A program made the position numbers and the translations under genes. This document shows, in pieces, positions 1-5,493 of a stretch of 35,884 nt of DNA. The stretch lies in IMG/VR virus record IMGVR_UViG_3300021431_000053. One strand, given 5' to 3'. The notes below the pieces were generated by a model. The model saw only the letters and a program-made list of their open reading frames with translations, had not been told where the DNA came from and ran no database searches. This DNA is from a virus. Numbering within the stretch: the first letter of the stretch is position 1; each line of letters starts with the position of its first letter.

Positions 1-1131
1 CTATATCCTCATGCTGTTGATCTCCCTGTACAGGACGTTCTTCGACTCGTTTGTGTAGACATCGAAAGTTATGTCATTCATCTTGTGTCCGAGAACCTTC
101 TTGCGCACGTAGATGTTTACGCTGTTAAGCTGGCACAGCGATGCGAACGTCTTTCTCGTGTCATGCATAGTGTGGCTGGTGCCAAGCGCATCATTAACGG
201 ATGCAAGCATCTTGCTGAGGCGGCTGTAGCTGCAGTCGATAAGCCTGTCTCCTTCCTTAAGCAGCTCCTCGACGACATAGCCCTTGATGTCATCGTGTAT
301 CGGTATCACCCTGTTCCTACCAGCCTCCGTCTTGGAGCCGGCTACGAGGTAGCTGATTGTCATTTCATTTCCGTCATCGCTGCATGCCTCGTCAATATGG
401 ACTGCATCCCTGCTGATCCCAATAAGCTCGGATGCCCTGCAACCCGTATAGATGTAGATGAGGATGAGATGAGCCTCGGGAGTGTCCAGCTCCTTCAGCC
501 TTCGTATCTCGTCTATCGAGAAGGGATAATGCTTGTCCGACTGGCTGAATCCAGCCACCCTGATGTATGATGTATAGTCAGAGTCTCTTGAGATGTACTG
601 GTGGATAACTGCATACTCGAATATCTTCGAGCAAAGAGCCTTCATGTGGACCTGCGTGCCATTTGCTGAGCCGTCCCTGTCAAAGATATCCTGGAGGTCA
701 GCAAGCGTGATCGTGTCAATCCTCCTGTTATGGATTGAACTGAAGCGCTTGATCCATGCTCTATACCCCCTCCTTGCGGATTCTGAGAGGCCGGAAAGGT
801 CCTCCTCGCTTATGATCTCGAATATCTCCAGGAACGTTGGCACCTTCCTCCTTGTTGCGTCCATGATGCGGTCATAGAGGTCTGGCGCCACTGCGTCAGC
901 CTCATCCCTGGATATCTTCCTTGACTTCGTGAGCGAATAGATCGAGAGGGCATTGAGCGCCTCCTCCCTCGTCTCGAATGTCCCTATGCTTACCTGCTTC
1001 TTCTTTCCTGTTATTATATCTCTTTCATCACTCATTATACGAGCACAGTAGGGCTTTCTTCTCTTTCCCGATAATTTAACCACGGTACCTGTATTGTTCG
1101 GCCTGCGTCTGAATCTTGCGTTCCTAGGCAT
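1..1131 (-). CDS. int: Tyrosine recombinase (phage integrase) with an N-terminal arm-binding-type domain
   Basis: 376-aa ORF. The stop codon TAG is the reverse complement of bases 1..3. Catalytic signature is present: TGCRASEL (Arg), HDTRKTF (H-x-x-R) and LGHKMNDITFDVYT (His/Tyr). It sits at the end of the lysogeny module next to the attP-like repeats. Confidence 0.9.
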   Translation of the reverse strand: MPRNARFRRRPNNTGTVVKLSGKRRKPYCARIMSDERDIITGKKKQVSIGTFETREEALNALSIYSLTKSRKISRDEADAVAPDLYDRIMDATRRKVPTFLEIFEIISEEDLSGLSESARRGYRAWIKRFSSIHNRRIDTITLADLQDIFDRDGSANGTQVHMKALCSKIFEYAVIHQYISRDSDYTSYIRVAGFSQSDKHYPFSIDEIRRLKELDTPEAHLILIYIYTGCRASELIGISRDAVHIDEACSDDGNEMTISYLVAGSKTEAGRNRVIPIHDDIKGYVVEELLKEGDRLIDCSYSRLSKMLASVNDALGTSHTMHDTRKTFASLCQLNSVNIYVRKKVLGHKMNDITFDVYTNESKNVLYREINSMRI

Positions 1132-1159
1132 AATATGACACGTCCTTTCATATAGATGA

Positions 1160-1189
1160 TTGCCTTCAGCGTGCCACAGGTGCTATAAT
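1160..1189 (+). promoter_or_regulatory. Sigma-70-type promoter TTGCCT-18 nt-TGcTATAAT (extended -10)
   Basis: TTGCCT at 1160..1165. Perfect TATAAT at 1184..1189, preceded by TG at 1181..1182. It points away from int into the int/accessory intergenic region. Confidence 0.4.
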
Positions 1190-1194
1190 TGTGT

Positions 1195-1299
1195 ACGCGG
1201 AAGGTCTTTTTTAACGAGATGGTCTTCTTGCAGTGATGTTCCAGCATCACGCTATCAGCATCCTGGCGCTGTCCGGGATGCCTTTTTTCATGTGGAAGA
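1195..1299 (+). ncRNA. Candidate ~100-nt sRNA, antisense to the leader of any minus-strand transcript entering int
   Basis: It lies downstream of the 1160..1189 promoter. Hairpin GTGATG-6 nt-CATCAC at 1243..1260. Terminator hairpin GCATCC(T)GG-CGCTGT-CC(G)GGATGC at 1268..1291, followed by CTTTTTTC. No credible ORF. Confidence 0.35.
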
Positions 1300-1300
1300 T

Positions 1301-1326
1301 TGTAGTGCATTGCACTACGTTGTACT
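1301..1326. repeat. 26-nt element TGTAGTGCATTGCACTACGTTGTACT (copy 1), containing the perfect palindrome GTAGTGCA-T-TGCACTAC
   Basis: 22 of 26 positions match the copy at 2611..2636. Together the two copies bracket the 280-aa ORF and its leader. Confidence 0.7.
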
Positions 1327-1374
1327 ATTGACGGTTACTTTACTATGTGAAGCTAATGATAAAATCATGTAATG

Positions 1375-2217
1375 CTACTTTAGAAGCTTTCTTGTATTTG
1401 AATCAATAGAAAGATATGTAATTAAATATCTATTTTCTTCGATTGCTGAAGAATTTGCAAAACATTTACTCTTGATTATCTTGTCATGCTTCTCCTTGCT
1501 TACGGTCACTGTGTCAATTACATTTACATTCATCAGTTGATTTTTGTATGTTTTGCTGTGGCATCTACTTTCTATTATTTTTCCCGATTCGTCTTTTTCA
1601 ATGATTCTCCTTATTGGCATAATATCCTGATTATTTGTGCGTGGGTTGTGATTTCGGAATGCAATGATATTGGATATGCAAAAATAATTAGAATCATTCT
1701 TCTTGCTTATACATATGTTTAAAACGTATTGCTGAACATGATATGATGCAATGAAGTCAGGGATAAGCTTGGTTTTACCTCTGAATTTGTTAACATCAAA
1801 ATAGTGCCATTCTCCTTCGGTCAATGCTTTCATAATGAAAGGAAATGAAAGAACTCTGATTCTTGTTGTCTCGTTGCTCCAGGCTCGGCCATTTTTTGAT
1901 AACTTAAGGATATCTAATGTGATAATGCTCTTTTTCATGTTCTTATAAGCGTTGATACCATTGAATGCCCCTTCAAACTTTAGCTGCTTGTTATGGGATT
2001 TTTTATCGTAGAATTCGTGGATGTCCAGTATATGGCTTACTGCCTTTGCCTCACAGTAAACTTTAAATGTCATGCCATCATCCATCTCAACAAATATTTC
2101 ATGGTTCTCTATTCGACTTTCAAAGAAATTACAGTAATCCTTTAATGTTATGTACTGATCATCTGGGATGATGCCTTTATTTATGCAATTTTCAATATAA
2201 TCTGTATGATCTTCCAT
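1375..2217 (-). CDS. Hypothetical 280-aa accessory protein with no recognised family; candidate effector/toxin
   Basis: Long ORF in a visibly AT-rich block. I place the start at ATG 2217, four nt after GGAGG (2222..2226), rather than the TTG at 2232 used by the ORF track. I recognise no catalytic motif with confidence. Confidence 0.75.
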   Translation of the reverse strand: MEDHTDYIENCINKGIIPDDQYITLKDYCNFFESRIENHEIFVEMDDGMTFKVYCEAKAVSHILDIHEFYDKKSHNKQLKFEGAFNGINAYKNMKKSIITLDILKLSKNGRAWSNETTRIRVLSFPFIMKALTEGEWHYFDVNKFRGKTKLIPDFIASYHVQQYVLNICISKKNDSNYFCISNIIAFRNHNPRTNNQDIMPIRRIIEKDESGKIIESRCHSKTYKNQLMNVNVIDTVTVSKEKHDKIIKSKCFANSSAIEENRYLITYLSIDSNTRKLLK

Positions 2218-2228
2218 CTTTCCTCCAA

Positions 2229-2266
2229 ACAAAAAAACACCAGCTTACTAGGCTAGTGTTTTTTTA
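2229..2266 (-). terminator. Intrinsic terminator (A-tract/stem/T-tract, bidirectional shape) directly abutting the RBS of the 280-aa ORF
   Basis: Minus strand reads AAAAAAACACUAGC-CUAGUAA-GCUGGUGUUUUUUU, followed by GUUUGGAGGAAAGAUG. The stem is 9 bp with one mismatch. Confidence 0.65.
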
Positions 2267-2455
2267 ATAAGTGCTAGCGAGTGCATCAGATGACTGACCA
2301 CTCCACCCATAGGATACTTGATGCGTCCCCTCCAGGGTCATGGCTGAGCAGGCCAGGGGATACGGTGCTAGCTCCGTATTCGCTTTCTTGCGAACTCGAC
2401 AGTCGACGAGAACGAAACGGCATTCGGCTCAAGGACAAGCCTTTATGTTTTCGTC
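2267..2455 (-). ncRNA. GC-rich structured ~190-nt leader or ncRNA lying between a promoter and a terminator
   Basis: This is a compositional island, roughly balanced in GC, inside about 570 bp of AT-rich non-coding DNA. Local helices on the minus strand: UUCGC-AAGAAA-GCGAA, UACGG-8 nt-CCGUA, UCCCCU...AGGGGA enclosing UGGC-7 nt-GCCA, and GCAUCA...UGAUGC. I do not recognise any Rfam family. Confidence 0.4.
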
Positions 2456-2460
2456 ATCTC

Positions 2461-2491
2461 ATTTATAACACTAGTGATATTCAGTTGTAAA
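2461..2491 (-). promoter_or_regulatory. Sigma-70-type promoter TTTACA-17 nt-(TGt)TATAAAT driving the structured leader
   Basis: Minus strand reads TTTACA (plus 2486..2491), a 17-nt spacer ending in TG, then TTATAAAT (plus 2461..2468). Confidence 0.5.
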
Positions 2492-2571
2492 GCATTATTA
2501 TATTTTTTTGGATCCTAGAATTCATTTATGGCCATTAGGCACAGCATAAAACGCCTTCATGGGTAAAATAT

Positions 2572-2595
2572 TGTGTTCTTAAATGTGTTCTTAAA
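2572..2595. repeat. Perfect tandem 12-mer TGTGTTCTTAAA x2; possible operator upstream of the leader promoter
   Basis: Read directly: 2572..2583 equals 2584..2595. Confidence 0.8.
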
Positions 2596-2610
2596 TATTA
2601 TCTTTAGTTA

Positions 2611-2636
2611 TGTAGAACATTGCACTACGCTGTAAT
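2611..2636. repeat. 26-nt element TGTAGAACATTGCACTACGCTGTAAT (copy 2), followed by the inverted repeat CTGTAATT-6 nt-AATTACAG (2630..2651)
   Basis: 22 of 26 positions match the copy at 1301..1326. The adjacent 8-bp inverted repeat is perfect. Confidence 0.7.
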
Positions 2637-2650
2637 TAATCTAAATTACA

Positions 2651-2737
2651 GGTAAAATGAAAGAGCCCTCACAGGGAGGACTCTTCTTCAGTGGCGCAAT
2701 GGCCGTTGTGTTTAACAGTGGCGTATAGCCGTTGTTC
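2651..2737 (-). ncRNA. Candidate ~85-nt sRNA made of two tandem ~27-nt repeats plus its own terminator
   Basis: The promoter is at 2744..2772. On the plus strand the repeats are GTGGCG-CAATG-GCCGTTGT-GTTTAAC (2691..2717) and GTGGCG-TATA-GCCGTTGT-TCAAC (2718..2743). Terminator is AGAGUCCUC-CCUGU-GAGGGCUCU followed by UUCAUUUU (plus 2651..2684). No ORF. Confidence 0.45.
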
Positions 2738-2743
2738 AACTGT

Positions 2744-2772
2744 ATATTATCCTATAACTGAAGATTTGTCAA
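2744..2772 (-). promoter_or_regulatory. Near-consensus sigma-70 promoter TTGACA-17 nt-TAATAT
   Basis: Minus strand TTGACA corresponds to plus 2767..2772 and TAATAT to plus 2744..2749, with a spacer of exactly 17 nt. It lies about 30 nt downstream of the MazF-like stop codon. Confidence 0.55.
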
Positions 2773-2800
2773 TCCCCTTGATTTACCTGGCTTTTGCCAC

Positions 2801-3334
2801 TTATTTCTTATTTGATTTATCTTTTACAAATAGCTCAATTAACTTAGATTCAATCAAATCAAGTATCAGGTCATCAGCAATCAATTTCTTTAGTGGGTCA
2901 TATTTACTTGTTGGTGGTAGGATTTTGTATTTACTTATCGTTGTAATGTTCTGAACAAGAGCGTAGGACCTCTTATTCTTTTTGATATACATTTCGGCAA
3001 TATCTTTTAATTCGTTCAGGTTTTTCGTTACTTGATTAATATCTTCTTCGTTATATTGCAGTCCGTTGTCATCTAGATCTTGGAATATTCTTGTGAATTC
3101 TTCTAGTTGACTAATGAGTAATGGGAATATTTGTTTGGATACTATGTTTCCGACATCTAAATAATACGCTTTATTCTTAGAACTCAACGGAACGACTGTA
3201 AGAACACCATTTCCTGGTGAATCTTTCTTTGTAAGGACAATCGCGAAATGCTTTCCTCTTAGTTCGCTTCCTGTTGAAGGATTGAAGTTAACAAGGATAA
3301 TTTGTCCTCTTTTGTACTTTTGAAACCTAGTCAT
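2801..3334 (-). CDS. MazF/PemK-fold toxin-like protein (177 aa) with a ~60-aa helical insertion
   Basis: The N-terminus KRGQIILVNFNPSTGSELRGKHFAIVLTKKD...VLTVVPLSSKNK matches the MazF/PemK signature (RGD-I-V-x-V-x-F-x-P-x-x-G-x-E-x-x-G-x-R-P-x-(V/I)-V-(L/V)...VVPLTS). SYALVQNITTISKYKI and the C-terminal helix LIADDLILDLIESKLIELF align with the distal MazF core. I place the start at ATG 3334, seven nt after AGAGG, rather than the TTG at 3370 in the ORF track. Confidence 0.7.
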   Translation of the reverse strand: MTRFQKYKRGQIILVNFNPSTGSELRGKHFAIVLTKKDSPGNGVLTVVPLSSKNKAYYLDVGNIVSKQIFPLLISQLEEFTRIFQDLDDNGLQYNEEDINQVTKNLNELKDIAEMYIKKNKRSYALVQNITTISKYKILPPTSKYDPLKKLIADDLILDLIESKLIELFVKDKSNKK

Positions 3335-3414
3335 GAATTTACCTCTTTTTTTGAAATGATGATTTGTCAAATTTAAAAACGCTTAGCTGTTTGTAAAGCT
3401 GTTTTATAAAATCC

Positions 3415-4059
3415 CTAGAACTCCTTTATGGCCCTCTTGAGGATGCCGATCACGCGAAAGTTTGTGTTGTTCAGGTCAATTACAATGGGATCGTAGCTGG
3501 GATTCATGGGAATGAGCTGGATGAAGGTCTCGCCCTGCCTGAACTTCTTGCATGTCGCTATGCCGTCGTCTATGCAGAACGAACCGATCTGTCCGCTCTC
3601 TATTGAGCTGGACTTCTTGAATATGAGAAGGTCTCCGTCGTTTATGCCTGCATTGATCATGGAGTCACCGCTTGCGATCTGGGCGAAGTAATCGGATTCG
3701 GAGCCGGCAAGCCCGTTGGAAACGACCTCTATCGTATCGACAAGGTTGTCATCAACGAACATGCCGTTTCCACATGAGATGTCACCATATAGCGGAATGG
3801 TGATGAAGGAGACGGGATGCGGTGTGCTTAGGTTAGATGGCTTGTTTTCAACTAGATCGGATTTTTTTATTCCTAAATAGTCAGCTAAAAGTTGTACTTT
3901 ATCCATTCGTGGATATTTTTTTGCATTAACCCAGTCACTGATTGTGCTTGTTGTTATTTTCAAGTCTCTTGATAAATCAGATTGTGTTTTGTTATTAATT
4001 GATAAATAGTGTCTTAAATTTTTCGAGAATATTTCTCTTTCTTTTTGTTTGATATCCAT
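3415..4059 (-). CDS. CI-like repressor: XRE-family HTH plus an S24 (LexA-like) autopeptidase domain
   Basis: The HTH is KTQSDLSRDLKITTSTISDWVNAKKYP. The S24 motif GDSMINAGINDGDLLIF has a downstream Lys (CKKF). I prefer the start at ATG 4059, eight nt after GAGG; the ORF-track start at 4065 is only two nt from the SD. Confidence 0.85.
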   Translation of the reverse strand: MDIKQKEREIFSKNLRHYLSINNKTQSDLSRDLKITTSTISDWVNAKKYPRMDKVQLLADYLGIKKSDLVENKPSNLSTPHPVSFITIPLYGDISCGNGMFVDDNLVDTIEVVSNGLAGSESDYFAQIASGDSMINAGINDGDLLIFKKSSSIESGQIGSFCIDDGIATCKKFRQGETFIQLIPMNPSYDPIVIDLNNTNFRVIGILKRAIKEF

Positions 4060-4080
4060 ATACATTACCTCACTAACTAA

Positions 4081-4110
4081 ATATTACTCCATTAAATGCG
4101 TAAAAATCAA
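4081..4110 (-). promoter_or_regulatory. Repressor (PRM-like) promoter TTGATT-18 nt-TAATAT
   Basis: Minus-strand -35 corresponds to plus 4105..4110 and -10 to plus 4081..4086, upstream of the cI-like start. Confidence 0.5.
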
Positions 4111-4127
4111 CTTATTAAGGAAAAAAT

Positions 4128-4159
4128 TTCCGCTTTAAGTTGACATTACGCTTAAAGCG
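4128..4159. promoter_or_regulatory. Operator pair: TTCCGCTTTAAG (4128..4139) and palindrome CGCTTAAAGCG (4149..4159) bracketing the PR -35 box
   Basis: CGCTTTAAG and CTTAAAGCG are perfect 9-bp inverted repeats 11 bp apart. The same motif recurs at 4666..4679. Confidence 0.6.
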
Positions 4160-4167
4160 AGTATAAT
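4140..4167 (+). promoter_or_regulatory. Early lytic (PR-like) promoter with consensus TTGACA-16 nt-TATAAT
   Basis: TTGACA at 4140..4145 and TATAAT at 4162..4167. The operator palindrome lies inside the spacer. Confidence 0.7.
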
Positions 4168-4195
4168 AAATGGTGTAAGGAGGAGTTACAAAGAA

Positions 4196-4285
4196 TTGAA
4201 AAAGCATAAAAAAATGAAGATTACTAAAATCGAACTCGAAATCAACCTAGTAATCTTCAAAATCAAAATCACCATAGAAAGGTAA
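4196..4285 (+). CDS. Possible 29-aa leader peptide (MKKHKKMKITKIELEINLVIFKIKITIER)
   Basis: TTG start 12 nt after AAGGAGGAG (4177..4185). It is followed by two hairpins, AGAGC-GAAA-GCUCU and CCUCAC-UUGG-(G)UGAGG. It is too short for the ORF track. Confidence 0.25.
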   Translation: MKKHKKMKITKIELEINLVIFKIKITIER

Positions 4286-4361
4286 GAGCGAAAGCTCTTT
4301 CCTCACTTGGTGAGGTAATGGTAACACATTTTTTGTAACTCCTCAACAGGAAGGAGAAATA

Positions 4362-4475
4362 ATGAAGGTAAAAATAAGCGTAAAAAGAACTAAATTTGAC
4401 AAGAAAGCATTTGCTGTATGGATTGTATTGATTATTGCAATTGCTGCAATTGTATGGGTGAGGGGGTGGTTATAG
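4362..4475 (+). CDS. 37-aa basic/hydrophobic single-TM peptide (MKVKISVKRTKFDKKAFAVWIVLIIAIAAIVWVRGWL)
   Basis: ATG at 4362, six nt after AGGAAGGAGA. The stop codon TAG (4473..4475) overlaps the GTG start of cro by one nt (TAGTG), which suggests translational coupling. Confidence 0.45.
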   Translation: MKVKISVKRTKFDKKAFAVWIVLIIAIAAIVWVRGWL

Positions 4476-4726
4476 TGCAGTTAACATTGAAAGCATGGAG
4501 AATCAATGCGGGATTATCGCTTGAAGATGTCGCTTCAATTTTAGGAAAGACGCCCAGAACAATACAAAATTGGGAAAGTGGGTTTAACATTCCTGATAAA
4601 GCTAACGTTTATAAGCTTGCGAAAATATATAACACAACAATTGACAATATTTTTTTGGGAAATCATTCCGCTTTAAGCGAAAGATATAAGAATAATAAAG
4701 AACAACTACAAAAAGGAGATGAATAA
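4475..4726 (+). CDS. Cro-like XRE-family HTH regulator
   Basis: The HTH is LSLEDVASILGKTPRTIQNWESG. I prefer the GTG at 4475, behind GAGGGGGTGG. The Cys-rich N-terminal extension in the ORF track (from 4418) has no RBS. Confidence 0.75.
   Translation: MQLTLKAWRINAGLSLEDVASILGKTPRTIQNWESGFNIPDKANVYKLAKIYNTTIDNIFLGNHSALSERYKNNKEQLQKGDE
4666..4679. promoter_or_regulatory. Distal operator copy TTCCGCTTTAAGCG inside the 3' end of the cro-like gene
   Basis: The 12-mer TTCCGCTTTAAG is identical to 4128..4139. CGCTTTAAGCG is the reverse complement of the palindrome at 4149..4159. Confidence 0.5.
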
Positions 4727-4728
4727 AA

Positions 4729-5493
4729 ATGAACGAATTAAAAGTTTTTAAGAATCAGGAATTTGGTTCGGTCAGGACATTAGTAATTGATAAAGAGCCT
4801 TGGTTTGTCGGAAAAGATGTGGCTGAGGTTCTTGGCTATAAGAATCAAAATGATGCATTAAGCAAACACGTTGATGACGAAGATAAAGATACAATCGCGA
4901 TTCGCGATTCTATCGGTAGAAATAGAGACACTCCAATAATCAATGAAAGTGGTCTTTACAGTCTTATTCTCTCAAGCAAGTTACCAAGCGCCAAGAAGTT
5001 TAAACGCTGGGTCACAAGTGAAGTACTCCCAGCACTTAGAAAAACAGGGCAGTACCAAGTGAAGGAACTAAGCGGACGGGAATTAATGGCTAAGGCATTA
5101 ATCGAGGCACAAAGTGTTCTAGCTGCTAAAGACAAGCAGATCGAGCAAATGAAGCCCAAGGCACTTTTCGCTGATGCGGTGGCAAGCTCCAGCACATCAA
5201 TCCTAATCGGACAGCTCGCCAAGATCCTTACGCAGAACGGGTACAAGACAGGGCAGAACAGACTTTTCGCAAGACTTCGCGAGGAGGGATACCTGAGCAG
5301 CCGAAAGGGCAACGACTGGAACATGCCCCAGCAAAGATACGTTGAGCAGGGACTGTTTAAAATCAAGGAAAGCACGCATCTTGACTCAAACGGCGTGAAC
5401 ATCACTACAAAGACTGTTACTGTAACCGGAAAGGGGCAAATCTATTTTTTAAACAAATTCGTTAAAGAAGGTACAAAATGTTCAAAGATTTAA
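4729..5493 (+). CDS. Antirepressor: BRO-N domain plus KilA-C/ANT domain
   Basis: The N-terminus is LKVFKNQEFGSVRTLVIDKEPWFVGKDVAEVLGY (BRO-N). The C-terminus is ILIGQLAKILTQNGYKTGQNRLFARLREEGYL...YVEQGLF (KilAC). Confidence 0.8.
   Translation: MNELKVFKNQEFGSVRTLVIDKEPWFVGKDVAEVLGYKNQNDALSKHVDDEDKDTIAIRDSIGRNRDTPIINESGLYSLILSSKLPSAKKFKRWVTSEVLPALRKTGQYQVKELSGRELMAKALIEAQSVLAAKDKQIEQMKPKALFADAVASSSTSILIGQLAKILTQNGYKTGQNRLFARLREEGYLSSRKGNDWNMPQQRYVEQGLFKIKESTHLDSNGVNITTKTVTVTGKGQIYFLNKFVKEGTKCSKI

Follow-up and report, generated by a model that had tools for sequence, protein, structure and literature searches.

The DNA analysed here, which we call the window, is the whole 35,884-nucleotide (nt) viral record IMGVR_UViG_3300021431_000053 of IMG/VR; it appears to be a complete temperate phage genome, and the same gene set is present on a second contig of 35,812 bp with approximately 3,775-fold coverage. 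This report deals with the island between the tyrosine integrase gene and the cI-type repressor gene of that phage (positions 1132-3414), which carries a gene for a 177-amino-acid (aa) MazF-like protein together with a noncoding unit named small RNA 2 (module 1), and a 280-aa open reading frame (ORF), ORF280, together with a structured noncoding block named RNA-1 (module 2). With modest confidence, we favor the interpretation that these are two independent ribonuclease (RNase)-toxin/RNA-antitoxin cassettes of a type III-like kind, in each of which the RNA would neutralize its protein. All transcripts discussed below are predicted from the sequence. The initial annotation had described the island as AT-rich, and its G+C content of 35.8%, against 48.1% for the whole window, makes it the lowest 2.3-kb stretch, with only 0.3% of 2283-nt windows being as low; inside it, the RNA-1 block reaches 49-53% G+C (53% for 2267-2455). 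The four elements that had been listed for the island, namely a MazF-fold gene, a promoter/repeat/terminator unit, a G+C-rich RNA placed before a 280-aa ORF, and a divergent unit next to the integrase gene, all lie where they had been placed, give or take a few bases. The principal features are:

1-1131, minus strand: tyrosine integrase
1375-2217, minus strand: ORF280, with a PBECR4-like domain (residues ~1-205) and a C-terminal domain of ~75 aa
about 2231-2455, minus strand: RNA-1, the G+C-rich noncoding block
2651-2772, minus strand: small RNA 2 unit, including its promoter
2801-3334, minus strand: 177-aa MazF-like ORF
3415-4065, minus strand: cI-type repressor, helix-turn-helix plus S24 peptidase

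The 177-aa protein of module 1 matches the Pfam family PemK_toxin (PF02452) at 1.4e-11 over residues 8-57, which is the N-terminal half of the domain only, and phrog_1412 at 6.8e-41. The profile of its family matches solved MazF/PemK structures at positions 12-65 and 127-163, and because the C-terminal part of the profile thus also matches these structures, the MazF-like fold can be taken as complete, with an insertion of ~60 residues. Both Pfam and NCBIfam assign the protein to PemK/MazF and not to ToxN/AbiQ, CptN, or TenpN, the PADLOC-DB v2 protein models returned no family at E<=1 for either this protein or ORF280, and the Abi_2 domain (PF07751) is absent from both proteins in Pfam. Three residues, H29, S52, and K53, are invariant in the family alignment and lie where the family aligns to the catalytic region of MazF: H29 sits where MazF has its catalytic Arg (by alignment to MazF9), and S52, by alignment to Escherichia coli MazF, would occupy the position of the catalytic Thr. 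Judged by these features, the protein is a candidate RNase toxin. As had been proposed, it has no protein antitoxin beside it: no plausible antitoxin ORF was found, the gap of only 80 nt between the gene and cI leaving no room for one, there is no adjoining MazE/PemI gene, and the upstream neighbors differ among relatives. What the gene does have as a partner is the small RNA unit that follows it, and the elements of module 1 outside the coding sequence are:

3370-3397, minus strand: promoter-like site (TTTACA-16-TAAATT) for the MazF-like gene, immediately past the cI stop codon
2744-2772, minus strand: small RNA 2 promoter, TTGACA-17-TAATAT, 28 nt after the MazF-like stop codon
2651-2738, minus strand: small RNA 2, ~85 nt, candidate RNA antitoxin of module 1
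2716-2734, minus strand: hairpin repeat 1
2689-2708, minus strand: hairpin repeat 2
2660-2686, minus strand: intrinsic terminator of small RNA 2, 11-bp plus U-run

Small RNA 2 contains the tandem repeats CAACGGCTATACGCCACTG and CAACGGCCATTGCGCCACTG, and its ~20-nt repeats CAACGGCUAUACGCCACUG and CAACGGCCAUUGCGCCACUG are each able to form a small hairpin. The conservation of this arrangement could be followed over a large family, the relatives of which were found with a family profile (a search with the single MazF-like sequence returned none) in 337 viral contigs. At 43 of the 73 loci with enough downstream sequence, a near-consensus sigma-70 promoter is present in a 150-nt window around the stop codon (-45 to +105 nt), versus 0.064 expected per window from a background taken from the same loci, which bears out the initial description of a promoter/tandem-repeat/terminator unit. 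When 36 distinct MazF-like lineages, down to ~30% protein identity, were folded, a terminator was found in 32 of them, with a predicted RNA of 81-113 nt, and most of these 32 lineages have two hairpins in tandem ahead of a strong terminator. Within a lineage the hairpins are similar in sequence, between lineages they are unlike, and the layout stays constant. Among the related loci used for comparison, which are designated by L-numbers, the architecture is also present in L021, L023, L033, L048, L053, L055, L059, L069, L073, L086, L089, L093, L108, L109 (Streptococcus pyogenes 315.1), and L110 (Staphylococcus aureus phiMR25). One stem pair that is G-C in one of the closest lineages is A-U in another (GGC...GCC vs AGC...GCU), both sides having changed, and the stem in L021 includes a G-U pair that is possible only on the strand of the gene itself.

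The gene is common in Staphylococcus and Streptococcus prophages: tblastn located the MazF-like protein in 104 phage records of GenBank (61 Staphylococcus, 43 Streptococcus), where the genes mostly adjoin the integrase and carry conflicting annotations. In the two records examined, a promoter, two hairpins, and a terminator follow SpyM3_0682 in S. pyogenes prophage 315.1 and orf2 in S. aureus phiMR25. Across the family, the protein-coding neighbors of the MazF-like gene vary on both sides, leaving the small RNA as its only constant partner, and the small RNA follows the gene irrespective of whether an integrase (in either orientation), the RNA-1 cassette, or some other gene comes next. Two other explanations of small RNA 2 were tried and rejected. 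Its complementarity to the 5' region of the toxin gene shows no excess over shuffles (mean z 0.13, 12 lineages), making type I-style antisense control of the MazF-like mRNA unlikely; and a peptide gene is not indicated, as the 32-codon TTG frame at 2641-2739 is unconserved in length and frame in L021 and L023, where the variation across it keeps the hairpins. In these two loci, we also observed a third copy of the hairpin repeat further downstream (L023 about 1222-1300, L021 about 4700-4775), which lies inside a stem of its own with its own terminator after it and may represent a second small RNA.

The protein of module 2, which the initial annotation could assign to no recognizable family, is probably a divergent member of PBECR4, an assignment that is transitive in that it was reached via relatives. 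ORF280 itself gave a single chance-level match in PHROGs (E 0.16), and its family is small, comprising three clusters in the 90%-identity collection, with 41 representative proteins matching the ORF280 profile at E<=1e-3 among the 1.84 billion searched and a last homologue search with a wide ORF280 alignment yielding only five proteins. PF18813 (PBECR4) is matched by 15 of the 30 aligned relatives, with a best value of 1.8e-19, and the protein P0133, which matches a 4-sequence ORF280 profile at 2.4e-20, carries PBECR4 in its precomputed Pfam annotation. PBECR4 comprises predicted RNases with the Barnase-EndoU-Colicin E5/D-RelE (BECR) fold, and PBECR domains were first described in polyvalent proteins. 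Within the ORF280 family, H62 is invariant and H67 and R121 are near-invariant, with a shared motif HLxGLHxF. AlphaFold2 produced a model with a predicted local distance difference test (pLDDT) score of 95.4 from 30 sequences, the attempt with 4 sequences being unusable (pLDDT 53), and this model matched two viral proteins in BFVD (1.6e-5 and 5.2e-5) as well as a segment of a polyvalent protein. No conserved protein neighbor of ORF280 was found among its relatives. On the strength of these profile matches, ORF280 is a putative divergent PBECR4 RNase and the candidate toxin of module 2.

The G+C-rich structured RNA of ~190 nt that had been proposed in front of this gene, with a promoter before it and a terminator set against the ribosome-binding site, is present and measures ~225 nt (2231-2455), with a minimum free energy of -79.4 kcal/mol and a z-score of -2.7. 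Its parts are:

2462-2491, minus strand: RNA-1 promoter, TTTACA-18-TATAAA with an upstream TG
2384-2455, minus strand: variable 5' part with hairpins, missing in L016
2269-2383, minus strand: conserved core of ~115 nt, a double pseudoknot, matched by the covariance model at 117 bits
2231-2265, minus strand: intrinsic terminator, given as the inverted repeat, with its hairpin at 2238-2258

The promoter was read directly from the sequence, having been omitted by the promoter scan because its -10 hexamer ends in A, and it is kept in L001, L004, L005, and L008; it has the upstream sequence GCTTTACAA in common with the promoter of the MazF-like gene. Hairpin Ha of the core has the loop GCUAGC, whose partner is the GCUAGC at 2273-2278, immediately ahead of the terminator. 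Hairpin Hb lies inside helix Pi (CCCCU/AGGGG), which is crossed by helix Pii (ACCC/GGGU), and a terminal hairpin, Hd, closes the structure. An additional helix, GCAUCA/UGAUGC, was discarded, as it is kept only in the closest relatives. The U-run of the terminator ends 4 nt from the ribosome-binding site GGAGGA (2221-2226), which precedes the ORF280 ATG at 2217, and the terminator must limit the translation of ORF280. A separate observation concerns the starts of the two RNAs, which in both cases tend to read UGAACAA, or nearly so, immediately behind the -10 element (window positions about 2738 and 2455, and likewise in L021, L023, L026, and L029); this may be a common initiation context or a recognition site.

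The evidence that RNA-1 is maintained as a structure comes from its relatives. All full-length ORF280 relatives checked (L001, L004, L008, L026, L029, L027, and L111), down to ~30% protein identity, have a homologous RNA upstream, its terminator and the ribosome-binding site being arranged as in the window, and the terminator is kept with compensatory changes in L004, L008, L026, L027, and L029. In the nearer lineages, the core is 83-85% identical, versus 62% for the ORF DNA and 49-52% for the protein; in the farther ones, core identity is 56-67% and all helices are kept. The helices are fully canonical in eight lineages with unlike sequences, the pairing of the loop with the 3' strand occurring as GCUAGC:GCUAGC, ACUGGC:GCCAGU, AGCUGG:CCAGCU, and UGCUGG:CCAGCA, and Pii as ACCC/GGGU, ACCU/AGGU, ACUC/GAGU, and CCAAUC/GAUUGG. 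In the covariance-model alignment, the pairs form in 89% of cells, compared with 35-45% when the partners are slid, and 13 pairs show changes on both sides, against 5.9±1.6 in shuffles, with 0 of 500 shuffles reaching 13; the model was not fitted to the two crossing helices, and this formal count understates the pairing because the rows of L026, L027, L029, and L111 are shifted by one column. The covariation check that had been suggested for this block thus came out in its favor, and both RNA blocks of the island are conserved in related phages. Exact-pattern scans for the core returned only chance matches in G+C-rich coding sequence (L010 and L012) apart from one real partial copy of RNA-1, in L011.

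Alongside the ORF280 family, we noted three short PBECR4 genes of ~200 aa (L112-L114), each immediately preceded by a promoter, structured RNA, and terminator, the RNAs lying ~200-420 nt upstream of the start of the match (position 1501). The leader of L112 contains crossing helices (GUGUGUA/UAUACAC and GAAUAGC/GCUAUUC), and compensatory changes distinguish the leaders of L112 and L113, so an RNA partnership may extend across the PBECR4 family. In L113, a Fusobacteriales-1 RNA (RF02920; 82 bits vs a gathering score of 52) occupies positions 1193-1311, just upstream of the structured leader of the short PBECR4 gene.

Comparison of the island with related loci delimits the two modules as separate cassettes. 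In L001-L003, RNA-1 and its ORF come directly after cI, with no MazF unit; in L009, an otherwise near-identical phage, a DUF4041/T5orf172 gene stands at the MazF position; L016 retains the MazF unit as well as the RNA-1 core and terminator, the ORF being replaced by a fragment that we read, from its sequence, as the C-terminal end of an S24 peptidase; and L011 has RNA-1 with its terminator, the inner Hd helix being broken, and no ORF. Such swapping is as expected of interchangeable cargo at a prophage hot spot. The L009 gene (2270-3598) encodes a 442-aa DUF4041 plus T5orf172/MUG113 protein, itself a cargo swap at the same hot spot. The boundaries are marked in the DNA of the window by the following features, to which we add the divergent unit next to the integrase gene:

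3391-3440 and 2485-2545: duplicated junction copies
2514-2545, minus strand: remnant of the cI 3' end, the right-hand junction of the MazF/small RNA 2 cassette
1301-1324 and 2611-2634: 24-nt palindromic direct repeat GTAGTGCATTGCACTAC, the copies 88% identical
1160-1290, plus strand: divergent unit, small-RNA-like, with an RNA of ~95 nt, divergent from the integrase gene
1160-1189, plus strand: promoter of the divergent unit, TTGCCT-18-TATAAT with TG
1258-1281, plus strand: terminator hairpin of the divergent unit

The 3' end of cI (GGCCATAAA.GA.TTCTAGG) followed by the -35 region of a promoter (GCTTTACAA) occurs twice, flanking the MazF/small RNA 2 cassette, and this duplicated junction, taken together with the "empty" arrangement of L001, indicates that the MazF cassette was inserted there by recombination. 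The two copies of the 24-nt repeat bracket the RNA-1/ORF280 cassette, one lying after the ORF280 stop codon and the other after the terminator of small RNA 2, and could be a recombination scar or a common hairpin signal. The proposal of a candidate undescribed system in the island stands in that RNA units are paired with putative toxins, and has to be amended in that the island holds two independent, separately exchangeable cassettes and not one system. The spacer between the cassettes includes a perfect 12-nt tandem repeat, TGTGTTCTTAAA x2.1 (2572-2596), of which L009 seems to carry a single copy. In L001-L003, the gene that follows ORF280 encodes 265 aa with weak, sub-threshold matches to the N-terminal part of integrases, and an insertion sequence (IS) transposase (rve) on the opposite strand comes next (the region is L001 6087-7695); the picture is consistent with prophages in decay, their integrase disrupted but RNA-1 and ORF280 retained.

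The divergent unit does not belong to this cargo. Its promoter and terminator are present as had been proposed, and are conserved, but it travels with the integrase: the promoter, 5' segment, and terminator are kept in L033, L037, and L016, which have the same integrase type and other cargo, and the terminator stem shows compensatory changes among those loci. It is thus part of the integrase module, and may act as an antisense to the integrase leader. The integrase itself has matches of only ~30-38% identity, the best being from Butyrivibrio, [Clostridium] innocuum, and Fusobacterium phages, and DNA similarity searches of GenBank phages returned no match, near or distant. ARAGORN found no transfer RNA (tRNA) or transfer-messenger RNA (tmRNA), so a tRNA-derived attachment-site remnant has no support, and a retron or CRISPR-like reading was rejected, since neither a reverse transcriptase nor a cas gene lies nearby and a repeat array is absent.

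How the two modules compare with known systems depends on which of their features is considered. With type III systems (ToxIN, CptIN, and TenpIN; AbiQ/antiQ) they share a predicted endoribonuclease, without a protein antitoxin, beside a short noncoding RNA on the same strand, to which module 1 adds tandem RNA repeats and module 2 a terminator that separates the RNA from the toxin gene and would govern the ratio of RNA to toxin, and their location on a mobile element would fit a role in defense. ToxN is structurally related to the Kid/MazF fold; by sequence, however, the putative toxins are a PemK protein and a probable PBECR4 protein and not ToxN, CptN, or TenpN. The RNA of module 1 lies downstream of the toxin gene under a consensus promoter of its own and contains hairpin repeats, whereas that of module 2 is a single pseudoknotted molecule of ~225 nt with no repeat array; a terminator between the RNA and the toxin ORF is thus found in module 2 only, and a repeat array upstream on the same transcript in neither module. 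The initial suggestion of a type III-like but noncanonical pairing agrees with these comparisons, since RNA and gene stay linked even in distant relatives, with lineage-specific or compensatory variation in the RNAs.

The best functional analogue of module 2 would be AbiF/RCd22 of a Clostridioides difficile prophage, in which the upstream structured RNA is reported to lower toxin expression and also to neutralize the toxin by binding (PMC12373285). Module 2 resembles it in being prophage-borne and in having a nonrepetitive structured RNA upstream of the gene for a putative toxic RNase, and differs in that ORF280 has no Abi_2 domain and is assigned, via its relatives, to PBECR4, and in that RNA-1 matches no Rfam family. 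Module 1 has the toxin fold of MazEF/PemIK, solved MazF structures being matched over both halves, but it has a conserved RNA gene in the partner position in place of a MazE/PemI gene, ~60 inserted residues, His in place of the catalytic Arg, and apparently Ser for the catalytic Thr. Relatives of ORF280 match PBECR4 (PF18813), with the His motif HLxGLHxF and a model that resembles the polyvalent-protein segment, whereas ORF280 itself falls below Pfam detection and has an extra C-terminal domain. Searching positions 900-4400 against Rfam 15 at E<=1 gave two chance-level matches only, and no Rfam family covers the equivalent RNAs in 10 related loci. In the searchable literature, which leaves most subscription journals outside, we found no RNA partner described for PBECR proteins and no description of module 1 as a PemK/MazF-like protein with an RNA antitoxin, hairpins, and a prophage location; PBECR4 is mentioned there by a single paper, and only briefly, and in a 2026 classification of BECR RNases the word "non-coding" is absent and no passage seen ties PBECR to an RNA. 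Within the reach of Rfam, PADLOC, and that literature, neither module has been described, as the initial annotation had supposed, and both would belong to the RNA-antitoxin kind, with new toxin folds, new RNA architectures, and, in module 1, a reversed gene order.

From these elements, a working cycle can be proposed. In module 1, a weak promoter after cI would express the MazF-fold protein, and the consensus promoter downstream would give an abundant ~85-nt RNA with two hairpin repeats, each of which, speculatively, might occupy one RNA-binding site of a MazF-type dimer; the MazF-like toxin may also process the repeats. In module 2, most transcripts would stop at the terminator, and occasional read-through would allow translation of the PBECR4-like RNase, such that RNA-1 would always exceed the protein, as in ToxIN and AbiF/RCd22. 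Were transcription shut off by a superinfecting phage, or the prophage lost, the RNA would decay and the freed RNase would arrest the cell, with abortive infection or addiction as the outcome. That both cassettes represent new families of RNA-neutralized RNase toxins is a proposition to which we give slightly less than an even chance. The same tentative grade applies to the picture for module 1, in which a MazF/PemK toxin would have exchanged its protein antitoxin for a two-hairpin RNA, and thereby type II for type III; this MazF family would then, quite possibly, be widespread and unannotated in prophages of S. aureus, S. pyogenes, and Streptococcus pneumoniae. ORF280, for its part, could perhaps be the first BECR-fold (PBECR4) RNase to be held by a double-pseudoknot RNA, an RNA that may also sense infection.

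Several observations weigh against the interpretation as two RNA-neutralized cassettes. Six MazF-like lineages have one longer hairpin instead of two, no terminator was found at four loci, and a few loci are without any unit. The layouts are unlike those of canonical type III systems, the module 1 RNA being downstream with its own promoter and the module 2 RNA being nonrepetitive. ORF280 has no direct match in Pfam (E<=1), NCBIfam, or PADLOC, and the structural comparison that had been suggested for it gave a confident model but no match to a solved structure in PDB by Foldseek at E<=1e-3, so that the BECR fold rests on sequence profiles and weak viral-model matches. RNA-1 is found without ORF280 in L011 and L016 and may for this reason have a role of its own. 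In the MazF-like protein, the canonical catalytic Arg and Thr appear to be replaced by His and Ser. A staphylococcal PemK with noncanonical catalytic residues showed neither toxicity nor RNase activity (PMC11915791). The last two points would suit a view in which the adjacency of RNA and gene is meaningless, the RNAs being independent regulators or leftover punctuation and the MazF-like protein being catalytically dead, for instance a DNA- or RNA-binding regulator, as the label "antitoxin MazE-like" of some annotations implies; the integrase-repressor junction does collect unrelated cargo, and the divergent unit shows that regulatory small RNAs are linked to other genes in this phage. We nevertheless consider this view very improbable, because small RNA 2 follows the MazF-like gene regardless of what lies beyond and moves with it as one cassette, because the invariance of H29, S52, and K53 fits a retained active or binding site, and because the PemK toxin fold identified in this analysis contradicts a "MazE-like" label.

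The placement of RNA-1 raises a different question, as it might act only in cis. A purely cis-acting leader, that is, a riboswitch or protein-responsive attenuator that senses a ligand or a phage signal and does not bind the protein, would account for the terminator directly between RNA-1 and the ribosome-binding site, for the highly conserved, pseudoknotted, aptamer-like core, and for the orientation and spacing, which are fixed in all relatives. It is nonetheless an unlikely explanation: by eye, the 3' strand of the core has no conserved alternative partner in the terminator, the terminators of L026 and L027 lack complements of GCCAGU and CCAGCU, respectively, there is no Rfam riboswitch match, RNA-1 persists with its promoter and terminator after loss of the ORF in L011 and L016, and a predicted RNase without a protein antitoxin needs a neutralizer. 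Control in cis is in any case compatible with neutralization, since RCd22 is reported both to lower abiF expression and to bind the toxin. Somewhat less probable again is a function of the RNAs as cofactors, whether scaffold, specificity element, or sensor, needed for the activity of an RNase ribonucleoprotein. The strict linkage of RNA and protein, which vary together by lineage, fits any stable ribonucleoprotein, and the fold of RNA-1 is far more elaborate than known type III antitoxin repeats; yet there is no guide-like variable segment or array, the strong stand-alone promoters and terminators, with the excess of RNA they are expected to give, suit an antidote more than they suit a cofactor needed in stoichiometric amounts, and the MazF- and BECR-fold RNases characterized so far are not known to act with RNA cofactors.

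If confirmed, the interpretation of the island as two RNase-toxin/RNA-antitoxin cassettes would extend the short list of RNA-antitoxin systems, which now comprises ToxIN, CptIN, TenpIN, and AbiF, by two toxin folds and two RNA architectures. The core of RNA-1, in which two long-range helices cross, is well suited to structural studies of RNA-protein recognition, and module 2 would provide the first functional partner for the uncharacterized PBECR4 RNases. Module 1 would explain a large class of orphan PemK/MazF genes that lie beside the integrase in Staphylococcus and Streptococcus prophages and that are labeled variously as toxin, "MazE-like antitoxin", repressor, or hypothetical. The MazF case is testable in tractable and medically relevant phages such as phiMR25, phage 85, and 315.1, and is relevant to the stability of prophages, to superinfection exclusion, and to how phage therapy turns out.

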